A DNA stretch of 60,335 bases from a virus (lineage: Duplodnaviria > Caudoviricetes): positions 1 through 60,335 of the IMG/VR virus record IMGVR_UViG_3300047553_000096. The stretch is one strand, 5' to 3'. Position 1 is the stretch's first letter. Each line of letters starts with the position of its first letter. Positions 3,951 through 56,495 of the stretch are shown here, one piece after another. The notes below the pieces were generated by a model. The model worked only from the letters and a program-made list of their open reading frames with translations. It made no database searches and had not been told where the DNA came from. The position numbers and the translations under genes were made by a program.

Positions 3951-3952
3951 GA

Positions 3953-5470: not shown

Positions 5471-5472
5471 AA

Positions 5473-7002: not shown

Positions 7003-7004
7003 TG

Positions 7005-7964: not shown

Positions 7965-7965
7965 A

Positions 7966-12099: not shown

Positions 12100-12134
12100 A
12101 AAAAAAGGGAGGTTGTTACGCCTCCCTCTTTTTT
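12100..12134 (-). terminator. Rho-independent terminator after the capsid gene
   Basis: Minus strand: GGGAGG-cgtaacaa-CCTCCC then T7; A/T runs on both sides; same hairpin at 46027-46061. Confidence 0.7.
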
Positions 12135-12147
12135 ACCACAGTTTTTG

Positions 12148-13104: not shown

Positions 13105-13117
13105 TTCAAACTCCTAA

Positions 13118-14053: not shown

Positions 14054-14063
14054 ACACTAACCT

Positions 14064-14300
14064 CTACTTAAAAATCTTAAATCGTCTCTTCACTATCTCG
14101 CCTTCGGCGGCAACAGATTCAAGACGCGCCTTAACCTGACGCACTGCGCGAATTGCCACGTATGACTCTTCGCGTAAGTCAATGTCGTCAGGATTACTAT
14201 TGATGATACGCTCGATGTTGTCTTTTTCCAACTCATCGAAGATTTCCGTCAGAAACTCATCACCAAGTAATGCTTTTGCTCGTTCCCATCGTTGTGTCAT
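14064..14300 (-). CDS. Conserved small protein upstream of scaffold
   Basis: 78 aa; homolog at 47998-48228. Confidence 0.7.
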   Translation of the reverse strand: MTQRWERAKALLGDEFLTEIFDELEKDNIERIINSNPDDIDLREESYVAIRAVRQVKARLESVAAEGEIVKRRFKIFK

Positions 14301-16399: not shown

Positions 16400-16401
16400 G
16401 A

Positions 16402-18369
16402 TTACCCTGGTATCTCGATGTTAGACGTAATGCCTGCGCCGACTTTCATAGCCTTCATCTGCGCTTCTGCCTCGAACTCCATGCGCTTGAGTTCTAACTC
16501 GGCTAGAGCCTTCTCTCTTGCAAGCTGAATGTCTGCCATAGCCTTTTGACGCTTGATCTCAATATCCGCTTGAGCCTGAGCCATCATCATTTGTACGGCA
16601 GGGTCTGGGCCTTGTTGCTGAGGTTGTGCAAGTGCAGCATCAACCTCCGGTGTTACTTGCTTGAAGAACTCAGCCGAGTCTGCAAAGCCTGCTGCCTCAA
16701 TCAACTTTCCGAGCGTCCCTCGATATTGCGAGACAGACACTAAAGGATTGTTCGGGCCGTACGCTTGAATGATCTGCTCTTGTTTTGCAAGAACCATTGA
16801 GAGCATCGCCATCTTTTGCTCGATGTTCCCCGTACCAAGTCCGACATTCACTGATACATCGTACTGGTTCGACCACTCTCGCGGGTCGTACTGAACATAC
16901 TGGCCGCGCATCCGAATGATGACTGCTTTGTCCTGGTACTTGCATAGGAGGTGCAAGAGTCCTTTGAATAAGTCTTTTACACCCGTTTCAGAGAAGATCC
17001 TAGCGACTAACTCGATCTTGCCTTGCGAGGCTTGCGTAAGGGCTGCTATGGCCGCAGCAGTAACATTCTGTAGGATGTTGGGGTCTAACCCTTGGGAAGC
17101 CTCTGTAACGCCCGTACGCTTGGCTTGGATTGAGTCCAGGTACTCCATGAACGGGAATACCTGCTGCGCAACAGGATTGACCTGGATAGGCACAAGTGCA
17201 CCAGGGTTCTTCATCCTGACCACGCCACCAGGCGTAACGCTCAAGAGATCATCGAGGTTGACCTGGCCTTCGACTGCTCCCATGCGGGAGTTGTTCTGCA
17301 AGTACAGGTTATCAAGCATCTGCCTCGTTAGAGTAGTCTTGATAAGCTGGAGATCAACTGTACGATCAGCAGGGCAATCCCCAAAGAAGCGATGAGGTAT
17401 CGGAATAGGGCAGAGGGTGTAAAACGGCACATAGTCGGTTTCCTCATTACTTAGGATTTCATTCCCCGAAAAGTGAACCCGTCTTAGTTCTGCAATCCCA
17501 TCTCCGTCGTAGTCAGTCTTTAGGTAGCACTCAAACACTTCAACCGTCTGCATGGACTTGTCGAGACTTGGCTCCATGTAAGGCTGCTCGTCTCGGTTGT
17601 ACCTTGCAATGTACTCAGCAGAAAACTCAAGATCGTTGTAGACCGGTAGATTCATCACGATCTCGGCATCAAACCCCATCGCAACTAAATCAGACCTTGT
17701 GATGAGTTTTCTGTGCGCGACAAAGGGTGTCTCTCTGACCGTCTTGCCTGCCTTAGAGATCAAGAACTCTTCGGGAGGCACATTCTCGATCTTGATCTTT
17801 CCGGCCTTAGTCTTACGCATGAGTGCGACGTTATGAACGCGCATCATTTGGCCATCAATATCTTGCTCAACCGTCTCTTGCGCTGCGATCTCCATCGTGC
17901 CATCAGACATGATGAGAGCTAATTCGTCGTCGGTAAGGTTCGCGTACTGCTCTTTAGTAACCGAGATCGAGTCATCCCAGTAGGCTTTGATAACCCCGAC
18001 CTTTTGAAGGATCGCGTCCTTAAACCAGTCGTGCATGATCGAGATGCCTGGGTTCTGCTTCATGAGCACCCAGTTTGTGTACTCGGTTGCTTGTTGGGCT
18101 AATGGCTCATCGCCTGGGCCTACAGGCTCAAATACACCGATCTGGTCAGCAGAAGTAAAAAGACGCATAAGAGGCGGCAGCATCCCGTCTACCGCTTCTG
18201 CAACCTCTCCGGTTACGATCTGGCTGCGACCCTCTACCTCGTTACCGTAGGGGTCACGCATGTAGGCCGTGAGCGCGTTCTTACGCTGCTCAACCGTCTC
18301 GGTCTCTAAGAAACCTATCGCGTTATCAATCTCACCTTGGAGAATCGCCTTTAATCGTCCGTCATCCAT
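16402..18369 (-). CDS. Portal protein
   Basis: 655 aa directly after TerL; NEVEGRSQIV, WFKDAILQKVG, ENVPPEEFLI motifs; Gln/Ala-rich barrel tail. Confidence 0.85.
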   Translation of the reverse strand: MDDGRLKAILQGEIDNAIGFLETETVEQRKNALTAYMRDPYGNEVEGRSQIVTGEVAEAVDGMLPPLMRLFTSADQIGVFEPVGPGDEPLAQQATEYTNWVLMKQNPGISIMHDWFKDAILQKVGVIKAYWDDSISVTKEQYANLTDDELALIMSDGTMEIAAQETVEQDIDGQMMRVHNVALMRKTKAGKIKIENVPPEEFLISKAGKTVRETPFVAHRKLITRSDLVAMGFDAEIVMNLPVYNDLEFSAEYIARYNRDEQPYMEPSLDKSMQTVEVFECYLKTDYDGDGIAELRRVHFSGNEILSNEETDYVPFYTLCPIPIPHRFFGDCPADRTVDLQLIKTTLTRQMLDNLYLQNNSRMGAVEGQVNLDDLLSVTPGGVVRMKNPGALVPIQVNPVAQQVFPFMEYLDSIQAKRTGVTEASQGLDPNILQNVTAAAIAALTQASQGKIELVARIFSETGVKDLFKGLLHLLCKYQDKAVIIRMRGQYVQYDPREWSNQYDVSVNVGLGTGNIEQKMAMLSMVLAKQEQIIQAYGPNNPLVSVSQYRGTLGKLIEAAGFADSAEFFKQVTPEVDAALAQPQQQGPDPAVQMMMAQAQADIEIKRQKAMADIQLAREKALAELELKRMEFEAEAQMKAMKVGAGITSNIEIPG

Positions 18370-19626
18370 TTAGACCACCCAAGATACGTTAGGTTTCAGA
18401 GGTTTAGACCAAGATGTTGTCTCGGACATACCAACTGCTAAATACCGAAATGCGTCAGAAGCATGAGATGCCCAATCGTGAAGAGGCTTATCCCAGTAAA
18501 CTTGACGCTTATCGTCGTATTGTCTCCGATAATTGCGTAGCGCGTCCACTCCACGCTTAGTCTTGGAGTCGAACCAACAATAAGGAATCAGCCTTCTCAC
18601 GGCCTGTATCCCATCGTCAACACCCATTCTCGGCACAATCGTGATGTTTAGCCCTGCTTCTTGTAGGAGTTCTAGCCTAGATCTTCCTGATCCTAGCTCT
18701 CTGACTTGCACATCGTGAGGCAGTAACTGCTCGGCTAATTCGTAGTGATTCGTTCTCAGCCAGTTCACATACCAATCGAGTCCCTGACCGTGGTTCTCTA
18801 CAAAGTCAATAAGTCGTGTCTCTAGACCTACTCTCTGGCAAACCCAGATCGCAGTGGAGTCGCCTATCCCTAAGTCCCAGGCTGCGTAAGTCTTGGCTAG
18901 TCCGTCTACAGGTATGTCGTGGAATCGTTCAGACGGTAGCTCATTGAGAAGTTGCCCGTAGTAACTTCCTTCGATGGCACTGTCAAAGGAACACTCAAAC
19001 TCCTGTAAGTACTTATCGTCTCCCATCTCGGACTTGGCTGCATCGAGTTCAGTCTGAGGGATAAGACCTGTCTCAGACGCTCTGAACTCAAGCAAGGCCC
19101 AATCGTTATGCTGCTCTGCATGGTCTCTCAGGGTCTTAAAGTGGTTGTTTCCTTTGGGTGTTCCGAGGAATAACGCCCATCCCATCCTGTCTGATAAGGC
19201 CGGACGAACCACTTCCGACCAAATTTTAGGGTTCTGGTCTCCGAATTCGTCGAATACAACGCCGTCAAAATACTGTCCTCGCAGAGAGTCTGGGTTATCA
19301 GACCCCGCAAGTTGGATGCGTCTACCCCAGAAATCAACCCTAAGTTCTGCAATATTGGCAATGGCGTTAAGGGGCTCGGTAAACTTGAGGAGGTAATCCC
19401 AGATAACTCGTTTTGTCTGAGAGTAGGTAGGCCCAATAAACGCATATCTTGGAGCCTCCTTCGTATTCTCTATCGCTGCTCTAATGAGATGGTTAACAGC
19501 AGAGACTGATTTCCCCATACGGCGGTGAGCCACAACAACCCCGAATCGCTTGTCTGCAAGCGCATGGTGGATCTGTAGCTGTTGCGCTCGCGGTGCATAC
19601 GGAATGATTATTCTGGTTGCGCCCAT
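18370..19626 (-). CDS. terL: Terminase large subunit
   Basis: Walker A HRRMGKS, Walker B VVFDE, GTPKG motif, nuclease WDLG and HASDAFRY. Confidence 0.92.
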   Translation of the reverse strand: MGATRIIIPYAPRAQQLQIHHALADKRFGVVVAHRRMGKSVSAVNHLIRAAIENTKEAPRYAFIGPTYSQTKRVIWDYLLKFTEPLNAIANIAELRVDFWGRRIQLAGSDNPDSLRGQYFDGVVFDEFGDQNPKIWSEVVRPALSDRMGWALFLGTPKGNNHFKTLRDHAEQHNDWALLEFRASETGLIPQTELDAAKSEMGDDKYLQEFECSFDSAIEGSYYGQLLNELPSERFHDIPVDGLAKTYAAWDLGIGDSTAIWVCQRVGLETRLIDFVENHGQGLDWYVNWLRTNHYELAEQLLPHDVQVRELGSGRSRLELLQEAGLNITIVPRMGVDDGIQAVRRLIPYCWFDSKTKRGVDALRNYRRQYDDKRQVYWDKPLHDWASHASDAFRYLAVGMSETTSWSKPLKPNVSWVV

Positions 19627-19913
19627 GACACTTGCATTTGGACAGGTTGACCGTCAGTTCCCGTTACCTCTGTTCGCGCTAATTTAGGTATGTGGTACTC
19701 GATTGCTCTCAGGTAGATGTCGCAAGCCTTCTCTGGGCTCTTCTGAGCCACTTCATCCAACCACATTGCGAACCTCGGAGCGTTCATCTCAGCCATTTTC
19801 GCAATAGCTTCTCTCACCGCAGCAGTGGACTTATTAGGCGAACCCTTTGGCCTCCCATTGCCAGCAGCCGGTGGAATCTTTTTCTCAGTATCTTCAGATT
19901 GTTTAGTGTCCAT
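19608..19913 (-). CDS. terS: Terminase small subunit (type A)
   Basis: GRPKGSPNK motif; overlaps the TerL start; ends G.DGQPV...SWAQPE. Confidence 0.65.
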   Translation of the reverse strand: MDTKQSEDTEKKIPPAAGNGRPKGSPNKSTAAVREAIAKMAEMNAPRFAMWLDEVAQKSPEKACDIYLRAIEYHIPKLARTEVTGTDGQPVQMQVSWAQPE

Positions 19914-19934
19914 TCGTTGTTTGTTTGCAACAGA

Positions 19935-21032
19935 TTACTGACCTAATAAACCTGATCTCATAAGCTCTTCTTCGTCTATGACTACAGGCCTTCCGTTTAC
20001 TTCCATAATCCTTAGCTTGCTTTCTTCTCCTGGAAATACTACGAAGTTACTTGTACCTTTCTTAGCCGCTCTTGATCCTTCATCTAAGTAACGTATTCCT
20101 GGAATCCCTAACTCAGTAAGATGTCCAGATGCGCTAGCTCCATGAGGAGAACCGCCCCAATAAAACTCGTAATAATCCCTTCCTGTCCTGCCTTTCATTT
20201 GTTCCCAAGATTTGTCAGGCATTTGAGAGCGAATAGCCTTCTGAACATAATCATTTTGCTGACTCAGCGGCTTATCCCAATCTAGCATCTTTGCTATTTG
20301 TTCGTCTGGTAGGTCTACTGTGTAAAGGGAGCCTTTAGTTGACTCTGAATAAACAGGTAGTTTTCCTGACTTTATGAACGGCAGTTCTTCTTGTTTAGAT
20401 TTTGCTAGCTCATCAGCCCACTGAACATTTCTTGATTTGAGGTCTTTTATTTGCTGGTTGTAACTAGCTACTATGTCTTTAATTGCTACATCACCGCCTC
20501 TTTGTTTTACTTCAAGTGCCGCACGATGAGCAGGATTTGTAGGATTGAAAGGCTTACCATCAACCAACATATCGAAATCAGACAAACTCTCTTGATATTG
20601 TTTAGCTACCGCAGGGTTCTCGGCAAAATAAAGGCCATGCCCGTACGCTTGTGCGCCTTCCCCAGTTCCTATTTTTTTTGACTCAAACTTACTAAACCTA
20701 TGCGGCGAACCATGAAACACAGTAAGCGGACTCAACAAACTTCCTGCTCGCTGTGCGCTTGCCATCGTAGAAGCAGCAGCAAAGGGTAATACCGACCCGT
20801 ACAGTTGACTAGCAACACTTGCCTGCTCGCCTAGTCTGTAAGCCTCAGACATCTTCTGAGCCTCTGGGTCCATCACTGAGTAAGTAGGTTGCCTACCCGT
20901 AAACCCTAGCAATCCCTGCGCGATAGGACTTGTCTGACCGTACCCTGGCAGCGAACTTACGCCCCTCGGTAGTTGCTCAGGCAGCGGAGGAAGAAACTTC
21001 TCCTCATCTAGCAGTCCTTTTCTACGCTTCAC
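19935..21032 (-). CDS. 91-aa leader fused to an ADP-ribosyltransferase-like (ART-PolyVal-like) domain
   Basis: VFHGSPHRF..F...KIGTGEGAQAYGHGLYFAEN..VAKQY, GIPGIRYLD and NFVVF motifs. Confidence 0.7.
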   Translation of the reverse strand: MKRRKGLLDEEKFLPPLPEQLPRGVSSLPGYGQTSPIAQGLLGFTGRQPTYSVMDPEAQKMSEAYRLGEQASVASQLYGSVLPFAAASTMASAQRAGSLLSPLTVFHGSPHRFSKFESKKIGTGEGAQAYGHGLYFAENPAVAKQYQESLSDFDMLVDGKPFNPTNPAHRAALEVKQRGGDVAIKDIVASYNQQIKDLKSRNVQWADELAKSKQEELPFIKSGKLPVYSESTKGSLYTVDLPDEQIAKMLDWDKPLSQQNDYVQKAIRSQMPDKSWEQMKGRTGRDYYEFYWGGSPHGASASGHLTELGIPGIRYLDEGSRAAKKGTSNFVVFPGEESKLRIMEVNGRPVVIDEEELMRSGLLGQ

Positions 21033-21325
21033 TTTTTGTTCCTCGCCGAGATAGCCTTTGCCTTTGCTTTCGCATCAGCCTTAGAACTTGCGCCCCATGC
21101 TTTTAGGCTCAAAAGCAGCCTGGTAGGGCTTCCATCAGGTTTTCTCTCTGGGCCTGGCATGTTACCCATTCTCGCTAAGAAACTCGCTCTACGCGGGTTA
21201 TCGCCGCTTTTAACAGGAGCCTTTAGGTTAGATCCAGGGTTCGCAGCCTCGTAAGACTTCCGGCCCTTTTCGTTGAGGCCACCCTTAGCGTTCTTACCCT
21301 CTTTCCTAGTCCAAGCGGCAGTCAT
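21029..21325 (-). CDS. Small basic protein (DUF6321-like)
   Basis: AWTRKEGKN.KGGLN.KGR.SY and RRASF.ARM motifs; near-identical at 56199-56495. Confidence 0.7.
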   Translation of the reverse strand: MTAAWTRKEGKNAKGGLNEKGRKSYEAANPGSNLKAPVKSGDNPRRASFLARMGNMPGPERKPDGSPTRLLLSLKAWGASSKADAKAKAKAISARNKK

Positions 21326-21477
21326 TTTTTAGCCGTTTTTGCTGATTCTTTGAAAGCCTTAGCCGTAGGCGCTCCAGGACTCCCAGGCTTACGCATACGC
21401 TCAGGAGTCTTGCCAGCAGCTTTCTGTTTTTCTATACGCTCGCGTTTAGCGTGGATGTTTGCGTATAAACCTTTCAT
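21322..21477 (-). CDS. Small basic protein, 51 aa (not in the ORF track)
   Basis: MKGLYANIHAKRERIEKQKAAGKTPERMRKPGSPGAPTAKAFKESAKTAKK; ATGA overlaps at both ends; conserved at 56492-56647. Confidence 0.8.
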   Translation of the reverse strand: MKGLYANIHAKRERIEKQKAAGKTPERMRKPGSPGAPTAKAFKESAKTAKK

Positions 21478-21626
21478 TTCTTTTTAGCCTTTCCTGCCTC
21501 AGATAAGGCAATAGCAATAGCCTGCTTCGGGTTTGTTACCTCTGGGCCTTTCTTGCTCCCTGAGTGCAACTTACCCTTTTTGAACTCAGTCATCACTTTC
21601 GAGATCTTCTTCTCCGCCTTCTTCAT
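21474..21626 (-). CDS. Small basic protein (DUF6496-like), 50 aa
   Basis: KISKVM.EFK.GKLHSGS..GP.VTNPKQAIAIALSEA; start placed at ATG 21626. Confidence 0.7.
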   Translation of the reverse strand: MKKAEKKISKVMTEFKKGKLHSGSKKGPEVTNPKQAIAIALSEAGKAKKK

Positions 21627-21972
21627 CGCCCATCTCCCAAGAAGCGCAAGACTTGTCCGGCGCACACATAAAGTTCCACTGATGGCAATAACCCGCGCCT
21701 TCTGGCAGGCAATCTTCCATGTCCATGTCGAAGTATTCGCAATTACCGCAACGCCTTTCTTGAGCCTGGCTTGCAGAGATACGCCACTTTGCGCCTAGAT
21801 CCCGCCAGAACTGCGTATCGCCCTCTCGTTCAGGGCCATACATTGCTTTCTCTTTTGCGATTGCTTTGTTCTCTTCGTTCAAAGCCTCGTCTTGCGTTGG
21901 AAGCGGACAACTCTCGTCCTCATCGCTTTGCTTCACAACAATCATCACTTTAGGGGAAAGCAAGCCTTTCAT
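21586..21972 (-). CDS. Cys-cluster protein, possibly metal or Fe-S binding
   Basis: RCGNC.YF...GYC..WNFMC....SC..W; homolog at 56753-57142. Confidence 0.65.
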   Translation of the reverse strand: MKGLLSPKVMIVVKQSDEDESCPLPTQDEALNEENKAIAKEKAMYGPEREGDTQFWRDLGAKWRISASQAQERRCGNCEYFDMDMEDCLPEGAGYCHQWNFMCAPDKSCASWEMGDEEGGEEDLESDD

Positions 21973-22097
21973 TTCTTTTCCTTGGGTTGTAAAGGAATGC
22001 CTACTTTCCTGTCATACCTGATAGGAACAGGAGGCACTTTTAGCTTGTAGGGAGACGGTAATGCTTTGCTATCCCTGGTTCGTTTTTCCACAGCCAT
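21969..22097 (-). CDS. 42-aa micro-ORF (not in the ORF track)
   Basis: AAGGAGG RBS 7 nt upstream; MAVEKRTRDSKALPSPYKLKVPPVPIRYDRKVGIPLQPKEKK; conserved at 57139-57270. Confidence 0.65.
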   Translation of the reverse strand: MAVEKRTRDSKALPSPYKLKVPPVPIRYDRKVGIPLQPKEKK

Positions 22098-22732
22098 GCT
22101 GCTGCCTCCTTGATGTTCTTGGAGTCGTCCTTGCCCACCGTTTGACTGCCCGCGTGGTGAACGTAACTCCTTGAAACAAAATGCTTAAAGTCACATACCG
22201 TAAGTGTATGACAAAAGACGTTATCTGAAAACCAGTTGATCGGCGGAAACCTAACCGCTTGGAAGGCTTCCTTCGTGATGTAAGCAAAGATCGGCGCAAT
22301 AACGCTCGTCTCTTTGATCGTCTGTTCTTCCGCCCACTTTATCCCATATCTTGCACCGCCCTCGAACCGGATATTCTGGGCCTCTAAGATATTGTCAGAC
22401 CTCGCCCCCAAAACCCCGATCTTATGCCCCGCCTTCTGTAGATGCTCTGCATCCTCAAGAATGAGTCTATAAGAGTCTGGAGTCAGGCAGATGTCGTCGT
22501 TGGCAATGATGACTGCATCGTGGTATTGGAATGCGTCGTCCATGATCCGGTTGTAAGCATCACCGAAGTTACCCGCCGAGTTGAGTACCCACTTGTAAAT
22601 TCGTTCGTCCATTGTCTCGGCCCGACTTGACAGATATATAGGCGCTTCTTTGGCGTAAAGACGGATGCTCGACAACGTGATTTCAAGACTTGGACTCCCT
22701 ACCGTACAAATGAGTATCGGAACTTTTTTCAT
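22040..22732 (-). CDS. GT2-like glycosyltransferase
   Basis: NFGDAYN, IIANDDI, WFSDN and YVHHAGSQT motifs. Confidence 0.7.
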   Translation of the reverse strand: MKKVPILICTVGSPSLEITLSSIRLYAKEAPIYLSSRAETMDERIYKWVLNSAGNFGDAYNRIMDDAFQYHDAVIIANDDICLTPDSYRLILEDAEHLQKAGHKIGVLGARSDNILEAQNIRFEGGARYGIKWAEEQTIKETSVIAPIFAYITKEAFQAVRFPPINWFSDNVFCHTLTVCDFKHFVSRSYVHHAGSQTVGKDDSKNIKEAAAWLWKNEPGIAKHYRLPTS

Positions 22733-23384
22733 ACTCCGCCATCCTATGGTGGGCTACCACCTGAAAGTATTTGTTATCCATGAGGTTTTCTGTACAAACA
22801 TTAACCTCTAACCCGTTTCTGTCCGCAATGATCGGAAACGACAGTTGATCCTGTAGCGTCCACTTCATCATTTCGATCCACCAGTCTTGATTAGCCTGGG
22901 GATTGATGTAACTTCGCTTCCAACATAGAACCCCACCAGCAATAAGACCTGAGTCCTCCGGCCAGCCTTGTTCCCGATAGTGCTCGACCTGAGCGAGAAC
23001 AGGCTGATCTCGATACTTGACCATATCCCAACACTCTCCGGCCTCTTGGTAAATACAAGTCCTCCAAGGATGATGGAACGCTGCCATCGTATCTCCTGCT
23101 TGGTCGATCATGTAAGCCACAAACTCAGGGCTCGTGATTCTTATCGACCCATCGACCCAAATCACATAGTCCTCGGCGAACTCCAACTTGTCTGGAAACA
23201 CCTTGAACCACTTAGCGTCCATGCGTGGATCTGCAAAGCGTCTGCTTGTGATGACTTGCTGCCATCCTTGTGGCTCTCTAGCACCGTCTAGGATCGCGTA
23301 GAACGCCGTAGGAACGCTTTGCCTGACCGCGTAGTGCAACGGGTCATAGTTACCAAAGATCGCCGTGTAGACCGCCGCTTTCAT
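22683..23384 (-). CDS. DUF616 (TOD1/MUCI70-like) glycosyltransferase-like protein
   Basis: VYTAIFGNYD, IWVDGSI, HP.RTCIY.E and DQLSF motifs. Confidence 0.7.
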   Translation of the reverse strand: MKAAVYTAIFGNYDPLHYAVRQSVPTAFYAILDGAREPQGWQQVITSRRFADPRMDAKWFKVFPDKLEFAEDYVIWVDGSIRITSPEFVAYMIDQAGDTMAAFHHPWRTCIYQEAGECWDMVKYRDQPVLAQVEHYREQGWPEDSGLIAGGVLCWKRSYINPQANQDWWIEMMKWTLQDQLSFPIIADRNGLEVNVCTENLMDNKYFQVVAHHRMAEYEKSSDTHLYGRESKS

Positions 23385-23413
23385 ACAAAAAAACGCCCAA
23401 CGTCGCGTCGGGC
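23385..23413 (-). terminator. Rho-independent terminator
   Basis: Minus strand: GCCCGACG-CGA-CGTTGGGC-GT7; the copy 2 hairpin keeps its pairing despite substitutions. Confidence 0.7.
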
Positions 23414-23436
23414 AAAGGAGGGGAAGGAGCCAACTT

Positions 23437-23625
23437 TCATTTTAGCCCATACCTTATTTCTTTGAGAATCTCTTCTGCTTGCAGTCTTAGGTCTATGGCT
23501 TTCCTGTGTAGCTCTACAGACAGATTGACAATTGCTAAGGCTCGTTGCTCTAACGCACTTGTTGACTGTGCCTGCTCGATGATGTCTTGTGCGGCACTCA
23601 TGGCTGCTGCTTCGTTTAGATTCAT
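23437..23625 (-). CDS. Hypothetical protein, 62 aa
   Basis: Homolog at 58609-58791 (LELH...IDLRLQAEE-like motif). Confidence 0.7.
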   Translation of the reverse strand: MNLNEAAAMSAAQDIIEQAQSTSALEQRALAIVNLSVELHRKAIDLRLQAEEILKEIRYGLK

Positions 23626-28120: not shown

Positions 28121-28184
28121 TTGGATCTTATGCACGCTATTGGGAATATTCTACGGAACGCTGCTCTTCCTGTTCATAAAGTAA
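28053..28184 (+). CDS. Small single-pass membrane protein
   Basis: Hydrophobic WILCTLLGIFYGTLLFLFI; overlaps the acidic ORF. Confidence 0.45.
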   Translation: MSYNNSWNNRSTNLEKWKPTRSDWILCTLLGIFYGTLLFLFIK

Positions 28185-28195
28185 AGGAGCTAAAC

Positions 28196-28726
28196 ATGAA
28201 ATTCGCTGAGTTAAACAAAATCAACGTCAACAGCAAGATCGAGAAGAAGAACAACCTCTCGTATCTATCCTGGGCATGGGCTGTAGAACAACTTTTGCTC
28301 AACGATCCGACTGCTACGTGGGAGTACAAGCCCCATCAGATGTGGAACGAGACGGTCATGGTGTTCTGCGAGGTCAAAGCATTTGGAGTTTCTCGCACTG
28401 CACAACTTCCGGTGATGGACCACAGAAACAAGGCGATCTCTAACCCAGATTCCTTCCAGGTCAATACCGCTATGCAGCGATGCTTGGCTAAGGCTATCGC
28501 GTTGCATGGTCTCGGTTTATATATTTATGCTGGAGAGGATCTTCCTAGCGAAGAAAAGGTCGATGAGCTTGAGGCCTACAAGTCAAAACTCGAAGCAGCA
28601 GAGTCGCTAGACGCGTTAAAAGCAGAGTTCTCTCCGGCCTACAAAGCCATGAAAGACAAGCCAGAAATAAAAGAACTCGTCGCAGTTTACGAAGCCAAGA
28701 AGAAAGCACTCACGGAAGTCAAATGA
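28196..28726 (+). CDS. Sak/DUF1071-type single-strand annealing protein
   Basis: IEKK.NLSYLSWAWA, LPVMD.RNK and N.AMQRCL.KAIA.HGLGLYIYAGEDLP; AAGGAG RBS before ATG 28196. Confidence 0.85.
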   Translation: MKFAELNKINVNSKIEKKNNLSYLSWAWAVEQLLLNDPTATWEYKPHQMWNETVMVFCEVKAFGVSRTAQLPVMDHRNKAISNPDSFQVNTAMQRCLAKAIALHGLGLYIYAGEDLPSEEKVDELEAYKSKLEAAESLDALKAEFSPAYKAMKDKPEIKELVAVYEAKKKALTEVK

Positions 28727-29076
28727 ACTTAGACCGATTTGAAGAGGGTTTGATCGACGACATCCAGACTGACCGCTGCAAGAAACTCTTGTGGTCGGTC
28801 ATCAACCTGGCAGTTGAAGATGCGTGCCGCGCTCCGTACAACAAAAAGCCAAGCACCGAGTCAATAACCGCGATGAGGTTTTTAATCGGGAACGGCAAGG
28901 AAGCCGATCTCGATTCTTGGCTGATGTGGCTGGACGTAAACGGTCCGGTGTTCAGAAGGAGACTCTTGGAAGCGATGTTCTCGGATCACCACGATAAGTT
29001 CCCAGACATGGCAAGAAGGGCTTTCAGAGCAAATTACAACTGGTGGAGGCTCAATGCGACTGATTTTAACGACTGA
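28723..29076 (+). CDS. Hypothetical protein, 117 aa
   Basis: ATGA-coupled; LLWSVI..AVEDA motif. Confidence 0.7.
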   Translation: MNLDRFEEGLIDDIQTDRCKKLLWSVINLAVEDACRAPYNKKPSTESITAMRFLIGNGKEADLDSWLMWLDVNGPVFRRRLLEAMFSDHHDKFPDMARRAFRANYNWWRLNATDFND

Positions 29077-29473
29077 GAATGACCGCAGGAGGGCTATAGA
29101 GGCTCTACAAGGCGCTGAATTAGGTTACATGGTAACTATTACCAAACCTACTCGTACAGCGGCTCAGAATCGGTTTTATTGGGCCATCCTTACTGCGTGT
29201 TCTGAGCAACTCATGAACCAGGAATATACCCAAGACATCTGGCACGAGTGGGCTAAGACTCGATTCTTGCCAACAAGGATCGTAGACCTACCTGGAGGCC
29301 AAGTGAAGGAGATAGAACCGAGCACCGCTTCTCTCACGGTCTCTGAGTTCTCTGATCTTGTGGAACAGCTCCTCCAGTACGCATTGGAGAAAGGCTTGAT
29401 TTGGACTGATGAGATGAAAGACGCTGAACTAGACTTAAGGAAGATCAATGTACATAAACAAAAAGCTGCTTGA
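29054..29473 (+). CDS. NinB/YbcN-like recombination protein
   Basis: RT.AQN.FYWA and ST..LTV.EFS.L.E motifs. Confidence 0.7.
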   Translation: MRLILTTENDRRRAIEALQGAELGYMVTITKPTRTAAQNRFYWAILTACSEQLMNQEYTQDIWHEWAKTRFLPTRIVDLPGGQVKEIEPSTASLTVSEFSDLVEQLLQYALEKGLIWTDEMKDAELDLRKINVHKQKAA

Positions 29474-29738
29474 GGCTTGCAGGCATATCCCCTGCGGGTC
29501 TTGTTTTGCAGAGGATGGAACGATTGTCGCTGCACACAGGAACCAAGGAAAAGGCATGGGCATCAAGGTATCTGATGCTTTAGTAGCATCCCTGTGCTTT
29601 CGTTGTCACACATACTTGGACCAGGGAAAGGATATGTCTCGTGAAGAGCGTCGAGACTTCTGGAACCAGGCGTATATCAACACGATGCAGGCAATGATCG
29701 AACGAGGATGGTTAAAGGTGCAAAATGCAAAGAACTGA
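29448..29738 (+). CDS. DUF1364/YbcO-like Zn-binding nuclease
   Basis: PC..C, AAH.N.GKGMG.K..D and LC..CH..LD motifs. Confidence 0.65.
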   Translation: MYINKKLLEACRHIPCGSCFAEDGTIVAAHRNQGKGMGIKVSDALVASLCFRCHTYLDQGKDMSREERRDFWNQAYINTMQAMIERGWLKVQNAKN

Positions 29739-30318
29739 GGATTGGTTTAAGGCAAGACTAGGCCATGTAACGGCTTCTAGGGCTTCAGACGCGATTGCCA
29801 AGCAAGGTACGGCTACACGCAGGAACTACGCAATACAGCTCGTCACAGAGCGTCTGACAGGCTTACAGGGCGATTCATTCACTAACGCAGCTATGCAGTG
29901 GGGTACAGAGCAAGAACCTATCGCTAGAGTCGCGTATGAGCAGGCTACAGGCTCGATTGTGGAGCAGACAGGCTTTCACAAGCACAAGAGCATAGAATGG
30001 CTTGGAGCGAGTCCTGATGGGTTTGTGGGCTCAGGGCTGATCGAGATCAAGTGTCCCAACAGTAACACTCATGTTGATTATTTACTCGCAAAGGAGGTTC
30101 CGACTAAGTACAAGTCTCAAATGCTTACTCAAATGCTCGTGACAGGAAGAACATGGTGCGACTTTGTTAGCTTCGACCCAAGGCTTCCAGATCACTTGCA
30201 GTTATTCATTGTTAGATACGAACCAAAGCCAGAGGAGTTCAAGATCATCGAGCTACAACTCACGAACTTTCTAGCTGAGGTTGCAGAAATGGAGAAATCG
30301 CTATGCCAAAAGAACTAA
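29725..30318 (+). CDS. YqaJ/lambda-exonuclease-like recombinase
   Basis: W...RLG.VTAS, WG.EQEP.AR, GASPDG, IEIKCP and WCDFVSFDPR. Confidence 0.9.
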   Translation: MQRTEDWFKARLGHVTASRASDAIAKQGTATRRNYAIQLVTERLTGLQGDSFTNAAMQWGTEQEPIARVAYEQATGSIVEQTGFHKHKSIEWLGASPDGFVGSGLIEIKCPNSNTHVDYLLAKEVPTKYKSQMLTQMLVTGRTWCDFVSFDPRLPDHLQLFIVRYEPKPEEFKIIELQLTNFLAEVAEMEKSLCQKN

Positions 30319-37583: not shown

Positions 37584-37585
37584 GA

Positions 37586-51813: not shown

Positions 51814-53070
51814 TCAGACCACCCAAGATACGTTAGGTTTCAGAGGCTTGGACCAACTTGTTGTCTCATTCATCCCGACCGCTAAATACCGAAATGCGTC
51901 TGCTGCGTGAGATGCCCAATCGTGAAGAGGCTTGTCCCAATAGACTTGACGCTTATCATCGTATTGTCTCCGATAATTGCGTAGCGCGTCCACACCGCGC
52001 TTAGTCTTATGGTCGAACCAACAGTAAGGAATCAGCCTTCTCGCGGCCTGTATCCCGTCATCTACACCCATCCTTGGCACGATTGTGATGTTTAAGCCTG
52101 CTTCTTGTAGAAGTTCGAGCCTTGATCTGCCTGAGCCTAACTCTCTGACTTGTACGTCATGCGGAAGTAATTGCTCTGCAAGCTCGTAGTTGTTTGTCCT
52201 GAGCCAGTTCACATACCAATCCAAGCCTTGCCCGTGGTTCTCAACGAAGTCGATAAGCCTTGTTTCTAAGCCTACTCTCTGGCAGACCCAGATAGCAGTG
52301 GAGTCGCCTATCCCTAGATCCCATGCGCAATAAGTCTTGGCTATCCCGTCCCTTGGGATCTCTCCGAATCGCTCAGACGGTAGCTCATTGAGAAGCTGTC
52401 CGTAGTACGCACCTTCAATGGCTGAGTCAAAGGAACACTCAAACTCTTGCAGGTACTTGTCGTCTCCCATCTCTGATCGAGCAGCGTCGAGTTCAGATTG
52501 AGGGATAAGACCTGTCTCTGACGCTCTGAACTCAAGCATAGCCCAATCGTTATGCTCTGCTGCATGGTCTCTTAAGGTCTTGAAGTGATTTGCGCCTTTT
52601 GGGGTTCCGAGGAAGAGAGCCCATCCCATCCTATCGGACAAGGCTGGACGAACCACCTCCGACCAGATACGCGGGTCTTGATCGCCAAATTCGTCGAATA
52701 CAACCCCATCGAAATACTGTCCTCGCAGAGAGTCTGGGTTATCAGATCCTGCAAGCTGAATCCTTCTGCCCCAGAAATCAACCCTAAGCTCCGCAATATT
52801 GGCAGTGGCGTTAAGGGGCTGGGTAAATTTGAGGAGGTAATCCCAGATGACTCGCTTGGTCTGGGAATAGGTAGGCCCGATGTAAGCATATCGGGGAGCC
52901 TCGCGGTTATTTTGTATCGCCTCGCGTATAAGGTGATTAACCGCGGAGACCGACTTTCCTAATCTTCTGTGAGCCACTACAACAGCAAAACGCTTCTCTC
53001 CTAACGCGTCATGAATCCTTAGCTGCTGAGGCCTTGGCGCATAAGGAATAATTATTCTGGTTGCGCCCAT
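51814..53070 (-). CDS. terL: Terminase large subunit (copy 2)
   Basis: HRRLGKS, VVFDE, WDLG and HAADAFRY. Confidence 0.92.
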   Translation of the reverse strand: MGATRIIIPYAPRPQQLRIHDALGEKRFAVVVAHRRLGKSVSAVNHLIREAIQNNREAPRYAYIGPTYSQTKRVIWDYLLKFTQPLNATANIAELRVDFWGRRIQLAGSDNPDSLRGQYFDGVVFDEFGDQDPRIWSEVVRPALSDRMGWALFLGTPKGANHFKTLRDHAAEHNDWAMLEFRASETGLIPQSELDAARSEMGDDKYLQEFECSFDSAIEGAYYGQLLNELPSERFGEIPRDGIAKTYCAWDLGIGDSTAIWVCQRVGLETRLIDFVENHGQGLDWYVNWLRTNNYELAEQLLPHDVQVRELGSGRSRLELLQEAGLNITIVPRMGVDDGIQAARRLIPYCWFDHKTKRGVDALRNYRRQYDDKRQVYWDKPLHDWASHAADAFRYLAVGMNETTSWSKPLKPNVSWVV

Positions 53071-53387
53071 GAGATCTGCATTGCAACTGGTTGGCCATTC
53101 TCGCCTGTTATCTCGTGCTTAACGCTCTCATGCCATTTAGCCCTTGTCTTTAGCCAAAAGATCATCGCCGTGGTATTTCCTGACATGGCTTGTTGATAAA
53201 GGCTTTTCGCTACCGCGGCATTAGCATCCACGCGACCGTCATCAAGCTCTTTCTTGTAATACTTAACAAGCGTATCCGCGCTTAGGTCTACCTTTGCGGC
53301 AATATCCTCGTGACGAACGCCAACCGCGGCTAGCCCTCTGACTAGCTTTCTGTTCTCATCCGTTGGTTCATGCAACACGCCCTGCAT
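53052..53387 (-). CDS. terS: Terminase small subunit (type B, HTH)
   Basis: EDIA....S..TL.KYY..EL..GR and LYQ.A..GN.TAMIFWLK motifs; ends SWAQPE overlapping TerL. Confidence 0.7.
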   Translation of the reverse strand: MQGVLHEPTDENRKLVRGLAAVGVRHEDIAAKVDLSADTLVKYYKKELDDGRVDANAAVAKSLYQQAMSGNTTAMIFWLKTRAKWHESVKHEITGENGQPVAMQISWAQPE

Positions 53388-54774: not shown

Positions 54775-56202
54775 TTAGTCTAGTAAACCAAGTTGTTTGA
54801 AAACTATCAATTGTTCTTCTGGGATGTCGTATGACGACATAGGAAAAACCTCGCGCCTTTGTGCAGGAGTCATTGATTCTCTTGCTTGCACCGCCCTTGA
54901 CTCAGCCTCTCCAGCAAGTTTACGGTAAGACTCAAACGGTCTAGCCACAAGATTTTTTTGCTCGTCAATAAGTTGCTGCTGTTCTTTGTAGCTCGGCCCG
55001 TATTCTTCTATTTTTTTCTTGGTTTTCCGCAAGATTGACTTAGCTTCCTCTGGAGGAGTAGAGGATGCAATATTTTCGAGTTGAGGATACCTTTCAATAT
55101 TTTTTTCTTTAATGATGCTTGCAGCGCTTCTTAGCCACTCATCTCTACCCGAACCTTTTTTACTTGGCATCTTCCCTAACTTGCTTGTGATTTCGCCGCT
55201 ATATTCATACCAATCAGATAGGTTGAAGATTGAACTTGGCTTTATGTTTTGCTTTTTCTCCATTGACTCAAGCCAGTGAAAATAATCGGCTTGTTGGGCA
55301 GCACTTCTTTCTCTAATTGCGCGTTCAAAACGCATTACATCATCTTCAAGCAAAGACATTTTTGGTTGAAAAACCGAGGCAATTATTTGAGGTATAGCCT
55401 CTGGGTTTCCACCGCCAGCAAAATTCTCTCGATATTGAATACCATGCTGAATTTCATGCAACAAAGTAGATCTCGCTTTGGCAAGTTGCTCATCGCCTTC
55501 ATATCGAGATGCTGACCCGCCAGTTTTGAACACATCTTCTTTAGTTAACTGCCCAGGTCTATAATAAGACCCGCTATATGCGGGATTTTCTTCAAGCCTT
55601 AATTTTGCCTGAGCAAGATCTGGGTAAGCCTTAAAAAGTTCTGGATGTTCAAGATAGCTACCAAGTCTTGCCCTAAGCACTTTTTCTGGCTCTCCGCTTT
55701 TTGCGGTAGAAAGAAATTCTTGCCAATTTAATTGGGCTAAGTCATCGCTTATTTCTTGCCTTAATTGTTTGTCAGAACCCCTAAAAGTTCCTGTTTGTCT
55801 CCAAATTTCTTCTTTTGGCAAGCCTTGGGCCTCAAGTTTGTTAAAAGCAATCTCTGCTTGCGCGTTCCACGCTGGAGATTTTTTGCCAATAAAAATTTGT
55901 GCGCCAGCACCAGGAATCCTAGCTGCATTTGCCATAGTAGACGCAGCCGCAAAAGGAAGCACAGACCCGTAAAGCTGACTAGCGACACTTGCTTGCTCGC
56001 CTAGTCTGTAAGCCTCAGACATCTTCTGAGCCTCTGGGTCCATCACCGAGTAAGTAGGCTGCCTGCCCGTAAACCCTAGTAATCCCTGCGCGATAGGACT
56101 TGTCTGACCGTAACCTGGCAGCGAACTTACACCTCTCGGTAGTTGCTCAGGCAGCGGAGGAAGAAACTTCTCCTCGTCTAGCAGTCCTTTTCTACGCTTC
56201 AC
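54775..56202 (-). CDS. 91-aa leader fused to an LPD23-like/zincin (HExxH) domain
   Basis: IWRQTG.FRG.D...R.EISD, HPELFKAYP.L, STLLHEIQH.IQ..E.FA.GG and Y..LAGEAE.R.VQ.R motifs. Confidence 0.7.
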   Translation of the reverse strand: MKRRKGLLDEEKFLPPLPEQLPRGVSSLPGYGQTSPIAQGLLGFTGRQPTYSVMDPEAQKMSEAYRLGEQASVASQLYGSVLPFAAASTMANAARIPGAGAQIFIGKKSPAWNAQAEIAFNKLEAQGLPKEEIWRQTGTFRGSDKQLRQEISDDLAQLNWQEFLSTAKSGEPEKVLRARLGSYLEHPELFKAYPDLAQAKLRLEENPAYSGSYYRPGQLTKEDVFKTGGSASRYEGDEQLAKARSTLLHEIQHGIQYRENFAGGGNPEAIPQIIASVFQPKMSLLEDDVMRFERAIRERSAAQQADYFHWLESMEKKQNIKPSSIFNLSDWYEYSGEITSKLGKMPSKKGSGRDEWLRSAASIIKEKNIERYPQLENIASSTPPEEAKSILRKTKKKIEEYGPSYKEQQQLIDEQKNLVARPFESYRKLAGEAESRAVQARESMTPAQRREVFPMSSYDIPEEQLIVFKQLGLLD

Positions 56203-56495
56203 TTCTTGTTCCTCGCCGAGATAGCCTTAGCCTTTGCCTTTGCATCAGCCTTAGAACTTGCACCCCATGCCTTTAGGCTCAGGAGCAGTCTGGTAGGGCT
56301 CCCATCGGGTTTTCTCTCTGGGCCTGGCATATTCCCCATTCGCGCAAGAAAAGACGCTCTACGAGGGTTATCGCCTGACTTAACAGGAGCCTTTAGATCA
56401 GACCCAGGATTCTCACGCTCGTAAGACTTCCGGCCTTTCTCATTGAGGCCACCTTTGGCGTTCTTACCCTCTTTCCTTGTCCAGGCGGCAGTCAT
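56199..56495 (-). CDS. Small basic protein (DUF6321-like)
   Basis: Homolog of 21029-21325. Confidence 0.7.
   Translation of the reverse strand: MTAAWTRKEGKNAKGGLNEKGRKSYERENPGSDLKAPVKSGDNPRRASFLARMGNMPGPERKPDGSPTRLLLSLKAWGASSKADAKAKAKAISARNKK

Follow-up and report, generated by a model that had tools for sequence, protein, structure and literature searches.

A phage gene beside the DNA-packaging genes that joins a constrained leader to exchangeable enzymatic payloads

The locus and its two alleles

The window, the whole 60,335-nt stretch of DNA analysed (IMG/VR record IMGVR_UViG_3300047553_000096), resembles about 1.75 genome lengths of two strains, about 80% identical, placed head to tail. 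It can be described as two related phage genomes, each with a cassette gene adjoining its DNA-packaging genes. The cassette is carried by podophages whose portal and capsid are of the SU10 type and whose genomes measure about 34 kb. The features of the locus are as follows.

19935..21032, minus strand: cassette gene, allele A; an ORF of 365 aa with the leader, an ART-like payload that contains a large insert, and a tail with GLL
54775..56202, minus strand: cassette gene, allele B; an ORF of 475 aa with the leader, an LPD23/zincin payload with a long helical hairpin, and the tail LGLLD
20760..21032, minus strand: leader, copy A (aa 1-91); encodes the same residues as copy B
55930..56202, minus strand: leader, copy B (aa 1-91); in the model, aa 1-54 and 71-100 have pLDDT below 50
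19938..19985, minus strand: tail T1 (VVIDEEELMRSGLLGQ) of allele A; carried by 40 loci of the ART1 cluster
19907..19937, minus strand: shared 3' flank, copy A; stop codon, 21-nt spacer and the start of the next ORF (ATG included)
21029..21325, minus strand: DUF6321 gene, copy A (Pfam E 1.6e-23); its stop overlaps the cassette start (GTGA)
56199..56495, minus strand: DUF6321 gene, copy B (Pfam E 4e-24)
19608..19913, minus strand: small-terminase-like gene, copy A; PHROG matches of unknown function; overlaps the TerL start
53052..53387, minus strand: terminase small subunit, copy B (phrog_309, E 1.1e-20); N-terminal part differs from copy A
28121..30318, plus strand: recombination genes, namely Sak-like annealase, NinB/Orf and RecE-like exonuclease (PHROG E 4e-47, 1.7e-19 and 7.7e-42)

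As the initial annotation had pointed out, the two cassette ORFs have 91 identical N-terminal residues and then switch abruptly to unrelated sequence. The leader DNA of the two copies differs at 20 of 273 nt (92.7% identity), and all 20 differences are synonymous, so that 91 of 91 residues are the same. With 20 synonymous and no non-synonymous differences, purifying selection on the leader is established, and these silent differences also identify the two copies as separate alleles and not as an assembly duplicate. Past the leader, nucleotide identity between the alleles is 23–28% (nt 273–303, 303–363 and 363–423), which is the chance level. From the stop codons on, 31 nt are again identical in both copies (TAATCTGTTGCAAACAAACAACGAATGGACA on the coding strand; window 19907–19937 and 54747–54777), in keeping with the shared flank of about 30 nt noted earlier, and the same 3' flank is also found behind genes of the ART1, zincin and C4 classes at other loci. 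The two proteins have the expected GLL-x ends, ...SGLLGQ in allele A and ...LGLLD in allele B. The cassette is a three-part gene, consisting of a constrained leader of about 100 aa, an exchangeable enzymatic payload and a short tail with a GLL motif, and this architecture is firmly established by the comparison.

The head-to-tail arrangement of the window might suggest that the second fusion of leader and payload is an artefact of a chimeric contig. The probability of this is negligible, since the allele B protein is 98.5% identical over all 475 aa to a protein with the same neighbours on another IMG/VR contig of 36,595 bp (L027), the fusion forms a protein cluster (P0003) with 20 member sequences, and the two leaders differ at the 20 synonymous sites. 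The recurrence on the second contig, together with the leader differences, excludes a chimera for the fusions themselves; this exclusion does not extend to the join at the level of the contig.

The GTG start codon of each cassette gene overlaps the TGA stop of a DUF6321 gene, as the coupling claimed in the initial annotation implies. The GTGA overlap is kept in 56 of 59 related loci. A DUF6321 gene lies immediately upstream in 51 of the 56 loci whose flank is long enough, and TerS is found downstream in 60 of 61. One reading of this junction is that the cassette is fused to the DUF6321 protein through a programmed −1 frameshift at C-AAA-AAG before the GTGA, in which case the leader would be an internal linker. 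The DUF6321 gene of copy A does end in ...AAC AAA AAG TGA, with the cassette in the −1 frame, and the heptamer C-AAA-AAG resembles known slippery sites. However, CAAAAAG occurs in just 27 of the 59 loci, while 29 of them, copy B included, have the non-slippery AAGAAG in its place, even though the overlap itself is retained. Moreover, DUF6321 stands at the C-terminal end of longer proteins in PHROGs, not ahead of another domain. Because the slippery site is so poorly conserved, the frameshift fusion is largely ruled out and deserves very little credence.

Within the window, the cassette is directly upstream of TerS, TerL and the portal gene. In copy A, the small-terminase-like gene begins 22 nt past the cassette stop, and its C-terminus is common with that of the terminase small subunit gene of copy B. 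Downstream of the cassette, copy B has only an ORF of 37 aa and a gene for a ParB-methyltransferase. No terminator-like site was found on the coding strand from a terminator/promoter-like pair at about 23.4 kb to the terminase, portal and head genes by a scan for consensus sequences only, which gives a faint indication that the cassette is co-transcribed with the late genes.

The leader and the two payloads

The leader had been said to be non-MuF, and this holds. No Pfam match, to MuF or any other domain, is found in it at E ≤ 0.01 with whole proteins or at E ≤ 10 with the leader alone; it matches no Pfam, NCBIfam or PHROG model, and it is not among the Pfam LPD models. It has no catalytic motif. 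AlphaFold predicts the leader of both alleles to be largely disordered or helical, with pLDDT below 50 over most of its length. Its hydropathy maximum is 1.04 (Kyte-Doolittle), which is below the value usual for a membrane helix, and a transmembrane leader was rejected on this figure. A comparison with 50,697 phage records gave no match to the leader, so that no cultured phage in that collection has it, and a pattern scan of 185,579 species genomes gave no close relative, so no prophage forms were found. In a language-model search of a protein atlas, no named family reached the bar of 0.9, the highest values being those of P22 gp16 (0.84), MafB (0.81) and PT-TG (0.80). The literature on DUF6321, DUF6496, LPD23, PF18838 and PF18760 yielded nothing relevant and one unrelated mention of PF18760.

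The payload of allele A is probably an ADP-ribosyltransferase (ART) of the ART-PolyVal type, a call made on its N-terminal half only. Two features define it.

20586..20729, minus strand: ART domain, N-terminal half (aa 102-149); Pfam ART-PolyVal, profile positions 5-47 of 140
20082..20084, minus strand: D317, proposed catalytic Asp; an invariant column of alignment A2 in the conserved C-terminal block GIPGIRYLD...NFVVFPGEE

The whole allele A protein matches ART-PolyVal (PF18760) with an E value of 5.8e-7 and 30.8 bits, just below the gathering cut-off of 31.2 bits, while residues 92-160 alone score 34.5 bits (E 4e-8) and close relatives clear the cut-off (32.3 bits for L003 and 34.4 bits for P0008), and the ART-PolyVal assignment made from motifs is probably right. 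In ART-PolyVal proteins, the active site is described as H-Y-D, with the His on strand 1, the Tyr on strand 2 and the Asp on strand 5 (PMC5512222). H107, which is at least 90% conserved, and Y135, which is invariant among the 29 sequences of alignment A2, are both within the Pfam-aligned part and are proposed to be the His and Tyr of this site. D317 was placed on strand 5 by visual comparison with compact ART-PolyVal members, a placement that no profile supports, and the C-terminal 76 aa of allele A have no Pfam match. When the ART1 alignment was compared with the compact members by hhalign, the leaders and the first ART strand only were aligned (probability 96.6%, 107 columns). The AlphaFold model of allele A, built with 29 aligned sequences, has a mean pLDDT of 56.7, with values below 50 in the core (aa 72-133), and is too poor to use; the ART alignment profile has only chance-level matches among PDB sequences, for example gp41 and vinculin.

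The sequence motifs in the payload of allele B indicate an LPD23 zincin metallopeptidase.

55726..55842, minus strand: LPD23 match (aa 121-159); PF18838 scores 33.1 bits (cut-off 27), E 4.8e-8
55444..55458, minus strand: HEIQH zinc-binding motif (aa 249-253); H249, E250 and H253 are invariant in alignment A1 (36 sequences)
54895..54927, minus strand: C-terminal motif Y..LAGEAE.R (aa 426-436); Y426, G431, E432 and R436 are invariant, A433 and E434 at least 90% conserved

In precomputed annotation, PF18838 is assigned to most of the 120 homologues listed. The best structural matches in BFVD, with E values down to 1.6e-16, bear the name 'Large polyvalent protein associated domain-containing protein'. 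Together with the invariant HExxH of the 36 homologues, the LPD23 score sustains the original assignment of this payload. E259 is at least 90% conserved in the same alignment, and the Y..LAGEAE.R motif possibly holds the third zinc ligand. The A1 profile matches the IrrE metalloprotease (3dte) with an E value of 0.0015 over a strand and the HExxH helix, and a WLM protease with an E value of 1.4. In the AlphaFold model of allele B, pLDDT exceeds 90 over most of the stretch aa 101-471. Foldseek found no PDB match to it at E ≤ 0.001 and recovered no zincin, and the 'wide' mode of VIA-align returned long-helix matches to the helical hairpin (aa 265-427) and nothing on the catalytic core.

Payload exchange among related loci

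A search of IMG/VR located the leader at 64 loci, 62 of which are usable. The payloads at these loci, which are on independent contigs, form six unrelated clusters of 43, 7, 6, 3, 2 and 1 members, so the interchange suspected from the two window alleles is confirmed elsewhere and the existence of distinct payload families is established. An HMM of the ART1 class found no match among the other payload classes (best E 0.11). The matches of classes C4 and C5 to ART-PolyVal are all sub-threshold, and class C3 has no match in the protein atlas, PHROGs, Pfam or NCBIfam. The leaders are of two types (L1 and L2) and the short GLL tails of three (T1, T2 and T3), and these occur in mixed combinations; C4 and C5 are each found with both leader types, and both T1 and T2 are present in the ART1 cluster.

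When payload class is mapped onto a tree of TerL (55 rows, 54 of them labelled), 16 changes are required, compared with 15–18 for shuffled labels and a possible minimum of 5. Payload class is unlinked from the tree of the adjacent TerL, and allelic replacement at a fixed locus is established. The proposal that the leader is a recombination arm is supported, since the leader and the 3' flank bound the swapped segment, as expected of such arms. New payloads would be acquired through homologous recombination that uses the two conserved stretches, leader and 3' flank, aided by the Sak-, NinB- and RecE-like genes of the phage, which are a plausible engine of the exchange. The locus is a clear natural case of payload turnover within one phage population, and such turnover points to strong and changing selection by host defences.

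A conserved N-terminus followed by a variable C-terminus is also the plan of polymorphic toxins. The MuF toxins of temperate phages (Jamet et al. 2017, PMC5576092) have, like the cassette, a conserved N-terminal module beside portal and terminase genes and highly variable C-terminal enzymes, and delivery through the phage head has been proposed for them, as it is here. The cassette protein could accordingly be a MuF-like toxin for competition between bacteria, whose C-terminal part kills cells that have no cognate immunity protein. Class C3 (L038, L047 and L052) lends some colour to this idea, as its 3' end is overlapped by a conserved antisense ORF of 52 aa, acidic in composition, which has the same length, an intact frame and 58% protein identity between L038 and L052, and which could be an immunity or inhibitor gene. 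However, the cassette leader has no MuF domain, the MuF toxin gene follows the portal gene while the cassette is upstream of the small terminase gene, and no immunity candidate was found 3' of either window allele or after the genes of the other classes inspected. The earlier statement that no immunity-like gene follows is correct for the window alleles and may not apply to class C3 elsewhere. Nor is there any sign of a temperate lifestyle in the window ORFs scanned, among which PHROGs named no integrase, and the scan of species genomes for the leader revealed no prophage forms. A toxin role is very unlikely.

At one locus (L055) the cassette is reduced to a stub of 41 aa, which means either that the gene is dispensable or that the L055 contig is faulty. 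The leader, its L2 variant, the T2 tail and classes C3-C5, which have no clear family annotation, are candidate new domain families and material for anti-defence screens.

Virion packaging and the role of the leader

The leader is not confined to small proteins. It is matched at E ≤ 1e-3 by 35 cluster representatives, in which it is continued by an ART1 payload (15), by an LPD23-zincin payload (3) or by other sequences (17). In five of the 35, the match begins past residue 180, within proteins of 606–1525 aa and directly ahead of a new module, and these relatives qualify as polyvalent proteins. In another phage lineage, an ORF of 1192 aa with an internal leader copy is located between TerL and the portal gene, and an ART homologue of Sulfitobacter phage phiGT1 sits between the portal and scaffold genes. 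One PHROG made up of very long proteins, phrog_21376, is matched by payloads of both types. The LPD23-zincin module also aligns with aa 2155-2371 of H66_0060, a protein of 3787 aa from Pseudomonas phage H66 (E 7e-13 and 1e-10), which has HELQH and GEVEAR motifs, the latter aligned with the Y..LAGEAE.R motif of allele B. H66_0060, annotated as a structural protein of a Hollowayvirus, is recorded in GenBank as 'verified by mass spectrometry as part of the virion', a statement that does not specify which part of the 3787 aa was detected. It has the same LPD23, HExxH and GE.EAR module as allele B; however, it is a giant multi-domain protein of a 65-kb phage, lacks the long helical hairpin and has no similarity to the leader by BLASTP.

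Both window payloads are assigned to domain families of the polyvalent proteins described by Iyer, Burroughs, Anand, de Souza and Aravind (2017, PMC5512222), namely ART-PolyVal and LPD23 with a zincin-like metallopeptidase. Polyvalent proteins, like the window cassette, are encoded with packaging or late genes; that study predicts from head-gene context that they are injected with the DNA, mentions solo versions near structural genes, and describes a GNAT adjoining an ART, an arrangement also seen at locus L045. ARTs are the commonest modifying enzymes of polyvalent proteins, and those adjoining terminase or portal genes have been predicted to be packaged in the head (PMC5512222, PMC9503650). 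Because solo and polyvalent ART and metallopeptidase effectors in such positions had already been described in these sources, the label of a new system in the initial annotation was overstated. The differences are that polyvalent proteins have 2–15 domains and the window proteins one payload module each, and that the leader-payload-tail grammar, the GLL ends and the allelic replacement of payloads at one locus do not appear in the portions of PMC5512222 available to us. T4 Alt provides the precedent of an ART carried in the head and injected with the DNA (PMC5512222), as is proposed for allele A; Alt, however, is an R-S-E ART (PMC5512222), and the site proposed for allele A is H-Y-D.

Gene context and the payload-2 homologue within H66_0060 suggest that the cassette protein is packaged in the virion. 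On balance, the best explanation is that the cassette protein is a polymorphic effector which travels in the virion and enters the host with the DNA, its payload being exchanged through recombination at the leader and at the 3' flank. The protein would be made together with the packaging and head proteins; the leader, perhaps with the GLL ends, would be a common module by which any payload is loaded into the capsid and leaves it through the portal along with the DNA; and the payload would modify or cleave a host target early in infection, for example one involved in defence or takeover. The large polyvalent proteins of other phages would then be strings of the same leader-payload-tail units. 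When the leader (aa 1-100, alignment A2) was modelled in complex with the scaffold and the major capsid protein, the score was 0.01 against a mark of 0.32, a value that is uninformative either way.

The payloads could instead be host-takeover or anti-defence enzymes that are not packaged and act in the infected cell, the leader being a targeting or regulatory module that directs different chemistries to a single host complex or compartment, or that prevents the enzyme from acting before it is needed. Strong purifying selection on the leader fits any binding function, and a leader that is mostly disordered with short helices is like many linear-motif adaptors. The leader has no match among cultured phages in the collection compared, and the phage ARTs ModA and ModB of T4 are not packaged (PMC5512222). 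Against this, the gene is found within or adjoining the terminase-portal-head block, and not among early genes, in three unrelated phage lineages, a homologue of payload 2 is within a protein recorded as a virion component, and the repetition of the leader ahead of each polyvalent module fits a role in handling or processing better than a single host target. Action from within the infected cell without packaging is on these grounds improbable.

A role in ejection has a still smaller chance. The leader and tail would here be segments of the ejection apparatus, as in a pilot protein active at the membrane or in the periplasm, and the payload would act on the envelope during entry and not on a cytoplasmic target. 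SU10-type heads hold five kinds of ejection protein (PMC9509320), and podophages of this type need such proteins (PMC9509320, PMC8954989). The nearest named cluster to the leader is the P22 ejection protein gp16, rated as a lead only, and the T2 tail is moderately hydrophobic (19-aa Kyte-Doolittle maximum 1.53). The low hydropathy of the leader, however, does not favour a membrane-active segment. ART domains need NAD+, which is cytoplasmic, and this is difficult to reconcile with action on the envelope. Since the gene is replaceable and is deleted at one locus, it is also unlikely to be an essential part of a channel.

The leader and the GLL peptides, which occur at the extreme N- and C-termini of many such proteins, might further be a portable signal for capsid loading and ejection, with one leader-payload-tail grammar used singly in solo effectors and repeatedly in polyvalent proteins. 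This extension is possible but doubtful. It likens the leader to the capsid-targeting sequence of T4 or to the cargo-loading peptides of encapsulins. The T4 sequence is a short N-terminal signal of about 10 residues, compared with about 100 in the cassette leader; it targets unrelated cargo to the capsid, and the prohead protease cuts it off. Encapsulin shells share the HK97 fold, and their cargo is directed by the loading peptides. Of the 10 ORFs scanned in the head region of the cassette phages, none was named as a protease by PHROGs. Were the signal portable, any enzyme could be made injectable by recombination at two conserved arms. A leader that makes proteins injectable would explain the unit-wise assembly of large polyvalent proteins and would be a compact, naturally occurring tool with which cargo of choice could be loaded into the heads of podophages.

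Two alleles of one cassette gene

The cassette gene occurs in the window as two ORFs, in which a common leader is followed by different enzymatic payloads:

19935-21032, minus strand, allele A, 365-aa ORF
54775-56202, minus strand, allele B, 475-aa ORF

Residues 1-91, the leader, are identical in the two proteins, and the 273 nt encoding them have 20 differences, all of which (20/20) are synonymous. This absence of non-synonymous changes shows that purifying selection acts on the leader peptide and that the copies are genuine alleles. Right past nt 273 the identity drops to 23-28%. The 31 nt past the stop codons, including the ATG of the next ORF, are again identical. The start GTG of both genes overlaps the TGA of the DUF6321 gene, and the proteins end in SGLLGQ (allele A) and LGLLD (allele B). 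The initial annotation had described two minus-strand ORFs with an abrupt switch after 91 common residues, a common 3′ flank of about 30 nt, GTGA coupling to the DUF6321 gene and GLL-x ends, and all of these features are present. A -1 frameshift fusion of the cassette gene with DUF6321 was rejected because the slippery site is found in only 27/59 loci.

The ART-PolyVal match of allele A covers residues 102-149 (E 5.8e-7) and scores 30.8 bits against the Pfam cut-off of 31.2 bits. The score is 34.5 bits for residues 92-160 taken alone, which also have weaker matches to DUF3990 and PARP. An alignment of 29 sequences has invariant columns at Y135 and D317 and at least 90% conservation at H107. 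These residues would fit the H-Y-D site described for this ART clade by Iyer et al. (PMC5512222, in part), with the Asp placed by eye, since the C-terminal 76 residues have no Pfam match. The proposed ART-PolyVal identity is supported by the match in the N-terminal half of the payload. An insert of about 150 residues seems to interrupt the ART domain; the AlphaFold model (mean pLDDT 56.7) is too poor to judge the fold.

For allele B, the proposed LPD23 domain is confirmed by a Pfam match of 33.1 bits (cut-off 27 bits). A search with this payload gave 130 relatives, with PF18838 on nearly all among the matches listed, and in 36 aligned sequences the HExxH motif (H249, E250 and H253) and a C-terminal Y..LAGEAE.R are invariant or nearly so. 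The alignment profile matches IrrE metalloprotease (E 0.0015) over a strand and the HExxH helix. The payload model has pLDDT above 90 over most of residues 101-471, with a long helical hairpin at its centre, which dominates the matches to solved structures. Predicted viral structures gave 15 matches at E<=0.001, the best being to entries named as large-polyvalent-protein-associated domain proteins.

Payload exchange at a fixed slot

Scanned with the 91-aa leader, IMG/VR gave 64 loci, of which 62 were classified; one of the two left out, L064, runs off its contig, and the other, L055, is cut to 41 aa. The classified loci form six payload clusters, mutually unrelated by BLAST, so the claim that one leader carries interchangeable payloads is borne out by a search with the leader alone.

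Payload clusters in the 62 classified loci
ART1 (allele-A type), 43 loci
C5, 7 loci
C4, 6 loci
C3, 3 loci
Compact ART-PolyVal (E 1.2e-17), 2 loci
LPD23-zincin, 1 locus

The ART1-class HMM detected none of the other classes (best E 0.11). C4 and C5 have only weak, sub-threshold ART-PolyVal matches, and the C3 payload has no match in the protein atlas, PHROGs, Pfam or NCBIfam. The allele-B fusion recurs on L027, a separate 36.6-kb contig, with 98.5% identity over all 475 aa, and also forms a protein cluster with 20 members. An assembly artefact is thereby refuted for the fusions themselves, and the second fusion is real rather than an assembly chimera.

The leader has two types, which have residues 1-33 in common and diverge beyond, and there are three tails, T1 (...EEELMRSGLLG..), T2 (...GAGLLSPAVLEYLRRRDEEGM) and T3 (...LGLLD). 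Leaders, payloads and tails mix freely: both leader types are found with C4 and with C5, and ART1 has the tail T1 or, in two longer proteins, T2. The nucleotide sequence of the T2 tail hardly differs among four payload classes, and the same intergenic sequence and start of the small-terminase (TerS) gene follow ART1, zincin and C4 genes. The 3′ boundary of the swapped segment is as sharp as the 5′ boundary.

The cassette locus is fixed. The DUF6321 gene lies at most 120 nt upstream in 51/56 loci with enough flank, and the TerS gene lies downstream in 60/61, with a ParB-methyltransferase inserted between cassette and TerS in 3/61. The large terminases (TerL) of leader-bearing loci are 92-99% identical to that of the window. 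Payload class requires 16 changes on a tree of TerL nucleotide sequences (55 rows, 54 of them labelled), within the range given by shuffled labels (15-18, mean 17.5; possible minimum 5). The payload is therefore unlinked from TerL, a gene only 0.3 kb away, which may itself recombine. The exchange could be driven by enzymes encoded in the window:

28121-30318, plus strand (opposite to the cassette), recombination module: Sak-like single-strand annealing protein, NinB/Orf mediator and RecE-like exonuclease

Several neighbouring genes also vary. The TerS genes of the two phage genome copies in the window (19608-19913 and 53052-53387, minus strand) have only their last ~20 residues in common (..TG.DGQPV.MQ.SWAQPE); their N-terminal parts are unrelated, and therefore the module adjoining the cassette has also been swapped. 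In copy B, the second of these, a ParB-N6/N4 DNA methyltransferase fusion (53405-54753, minus strand) is inserted between cassette and TerS. It is preceded by a 37-aa ORF (~54640-54753), and the stop of this ORF and the GTG start of the methylase overlap (GTGA). At 54678-54694 there is a third copy of a 17-mer from the DUF6321 gene 3′ end, which looks like a recombination scar. In L055 (6001-6260) an internal deletion between the second GLL of the leader and the NFVVFP block has reduced the cassette gene to a stub of 41 aa; either the phage can do without this gene or the contig contains an error.

The leader and the polyvalent proteins

The leader has no match among Pfam, NCBIfam and PHROG models, and none in Pfam even at E<=10, in keeping with the expectation that it is not an already described family. 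A low-confidence model has a disordered start followed by three helices; a membrane helix was rejected, the hydrophobicity being too low. Among 1.84 billion cluster representatives searched with HMMER, 35 proteins match the leader at E<=1e-3 and continue past it as ART1 (15/35), LPD23-zincin (3/35) or other sequence (17/35). In five of the 35 the match begins beyond residue 180, within proteins of 606-1525 aa. These internal leaders have the core G..G....SVMDP.A....AY..GE.ASV....G...PFA.AS, are preceded by a short tail-like segment (...GGAV....NPD.M.LEL...) and are directly followed by a new module; several of the proteins carry ART-PolyVal, PcfJ-like or DUF7178 domains. Because the leader also sits before modules inside polyvalent proteins, each window gene looks like one unit of a leader-payload-tail grammar, the units of which are repeated in a string in those proteins.

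The GLL motif is present on quite different leaders. Among 162 collected proteins, which are interrelated and chosen by homology so that the counts are not independent, 28 have it within their first 15 residues and 24 within their last 25, where its overall frequency predicts about 4 and 7. Many solo LPD23 or ART proteins with different leaders (P0001-P0162; loci L107 and L142) start M(x0-3)GLL[DST] and end ..LI.[RKQ]GLL[DKQE].

The domain families, the injected-effector idea and the gene context are already known (PMC5512222 and PMC9503650, both in part), and MuF polymorphic toxins have the same N-conserved, C-variable plan (PMC5576092, in part). The leader family with its second type, L2, and the terminal GLL motif are neither annotated nor described in the family libraries or the portions of the literature searched. 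Nor do these portions describe the leader-payload-tail unit common to solo and polyvalent forms, or population-level payload replacement at one fixed slot (supplementary domain lists of PMC5512222 aside).

A MuF-like interbacterial toxin is very unlikely for the window alleles, which have neither a MuF domain nor an immunity gene, but class C3 always has a conserved, acidic antisense ORF of 52 aa. The initial statement that no immunity-like gene follows holds for both window alleles. The C3 ORF (L038 3507-3665 and L052 2074-2232, minus strand; L047 same as L038) is convergent and overlaps the payload 3′ end. Between L038 and L052 it has 58% protein and 64% nucleotide identity, with equal length and the frame intact, and it may be an inhibitor or immunity gene dedicated to the C3 payload.

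Putative packaging and the phage genome copies

Gene context, homologues and the literature indirectly suggest that the cassette protein may be packaged in the virion. A consensus scan found a strong terminator-like hairpin (9 pairs, then a T run) and a promoter-like site at 23394-23468 (minus strand), and no terminator-like site downstream of ~23.4 kb on the cassette strand, which suggests that the cassette is transcribed as a single unit together with the terminase, portal and head genes. This pair divides small early genes from a block of glycosyltransferase-like genes, cassette, terminase genes and head genes. Another phage lineage has, between its TerL and portal genes, a 1192-aa ORF that contains a copy of the leader internally. 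Sulfitobacter phage phiGT1 encodes an ART homologue (37.5% identity) between portal and scaffold; this homologue has a leader of its own and a tail that is hydrophobic. Residues 2155-2371 of H66_0060 (3787 aa) align with the LPD23-zincin module, and the GenBank note on H66_0060 gives it as a virion part verified by mass spectrometry. Head packaging has been predicted both for polyvalent proteins and for ARTs encoded in settings of this kind, T4 Alt being the worked example (PMC5512222 and PMC9503650, in part), and SU10 heads contain five kinds of ejection protein (PMC9509320, in part). A cytoplasmic, non-packaged protein with the leader as adaptor or regulator would fit the selection on the leader but fits less well with the gene position and the repeated use of the leader before each module, and is rather unlikely. 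An envelope-acting pilot protein, weakly suggested by the T2 tail, is less probable still.

The portal (Pfam E 1.5e-211) and capsid protein (Pfam E 5.4e-102) of the phage are of the SU10 type, and it also has scaffold protein, large terminase and tail-fibre genes. By portal sequence its nearest named relatives are uncultured Manatee Spring phages (60% identity) and Methylophilales phage Venkman (54%). Self-comparison of the window, an IMG/VR virus contig of 60,335 bp, shows one phage genome present twice in collinear order, the copies having ~80% identity and an offset of 33.4-35.2 kb:

6751-14493 = 40675-48421, collinear block
16394-19652 = 49836-53096, collinear block
20759-23559 = 55929-58725, collinear block

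Because of these copies, the window is most likely a strain-chimeric assembly of ~1.75 genome lengths, in which two co-occurring strains are joined head to tail; the joining leaves the cassette finding unaffected. The strain switch point lies somewhere between ~23.6 and 33.8 kb.

Upstream of DUF6321 are two tiny lysine-rich genes, for a 51-aa protein and a DUF6496 protein (21322-21665 and 56492-56961, minus strand). Since the 51-aa protein and DUF6321 are parts of longer proteins in PHROGs (phrog_11180, phrog_22379, phrog_727 and phrog_3477), these small genes, too, may have arisen from larger virion proteins that were split. At the left end of each copy, the tail-fibre-like genes (1548-7002 and 35082-40926, minus strand) are mostly unrelated between the copies, with alignment limited to short patches, which suggests that host-range determinants differ between the two strains. 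The gene after the portal (14297-16399 and 48225-49841, minus strand) encodes a proline-rich repeat protein of 700 aa in copy A and 538 aa in copy B, with unrelated N-terminal parts and C-terminal ~340 aa that are 39% identical. Its C-terminal end, YEKGGK..LLGPNPD, resembles the inter-module tail segments of polyvalent proteins, and the gene may be a second hypervariable virion-protein locus.
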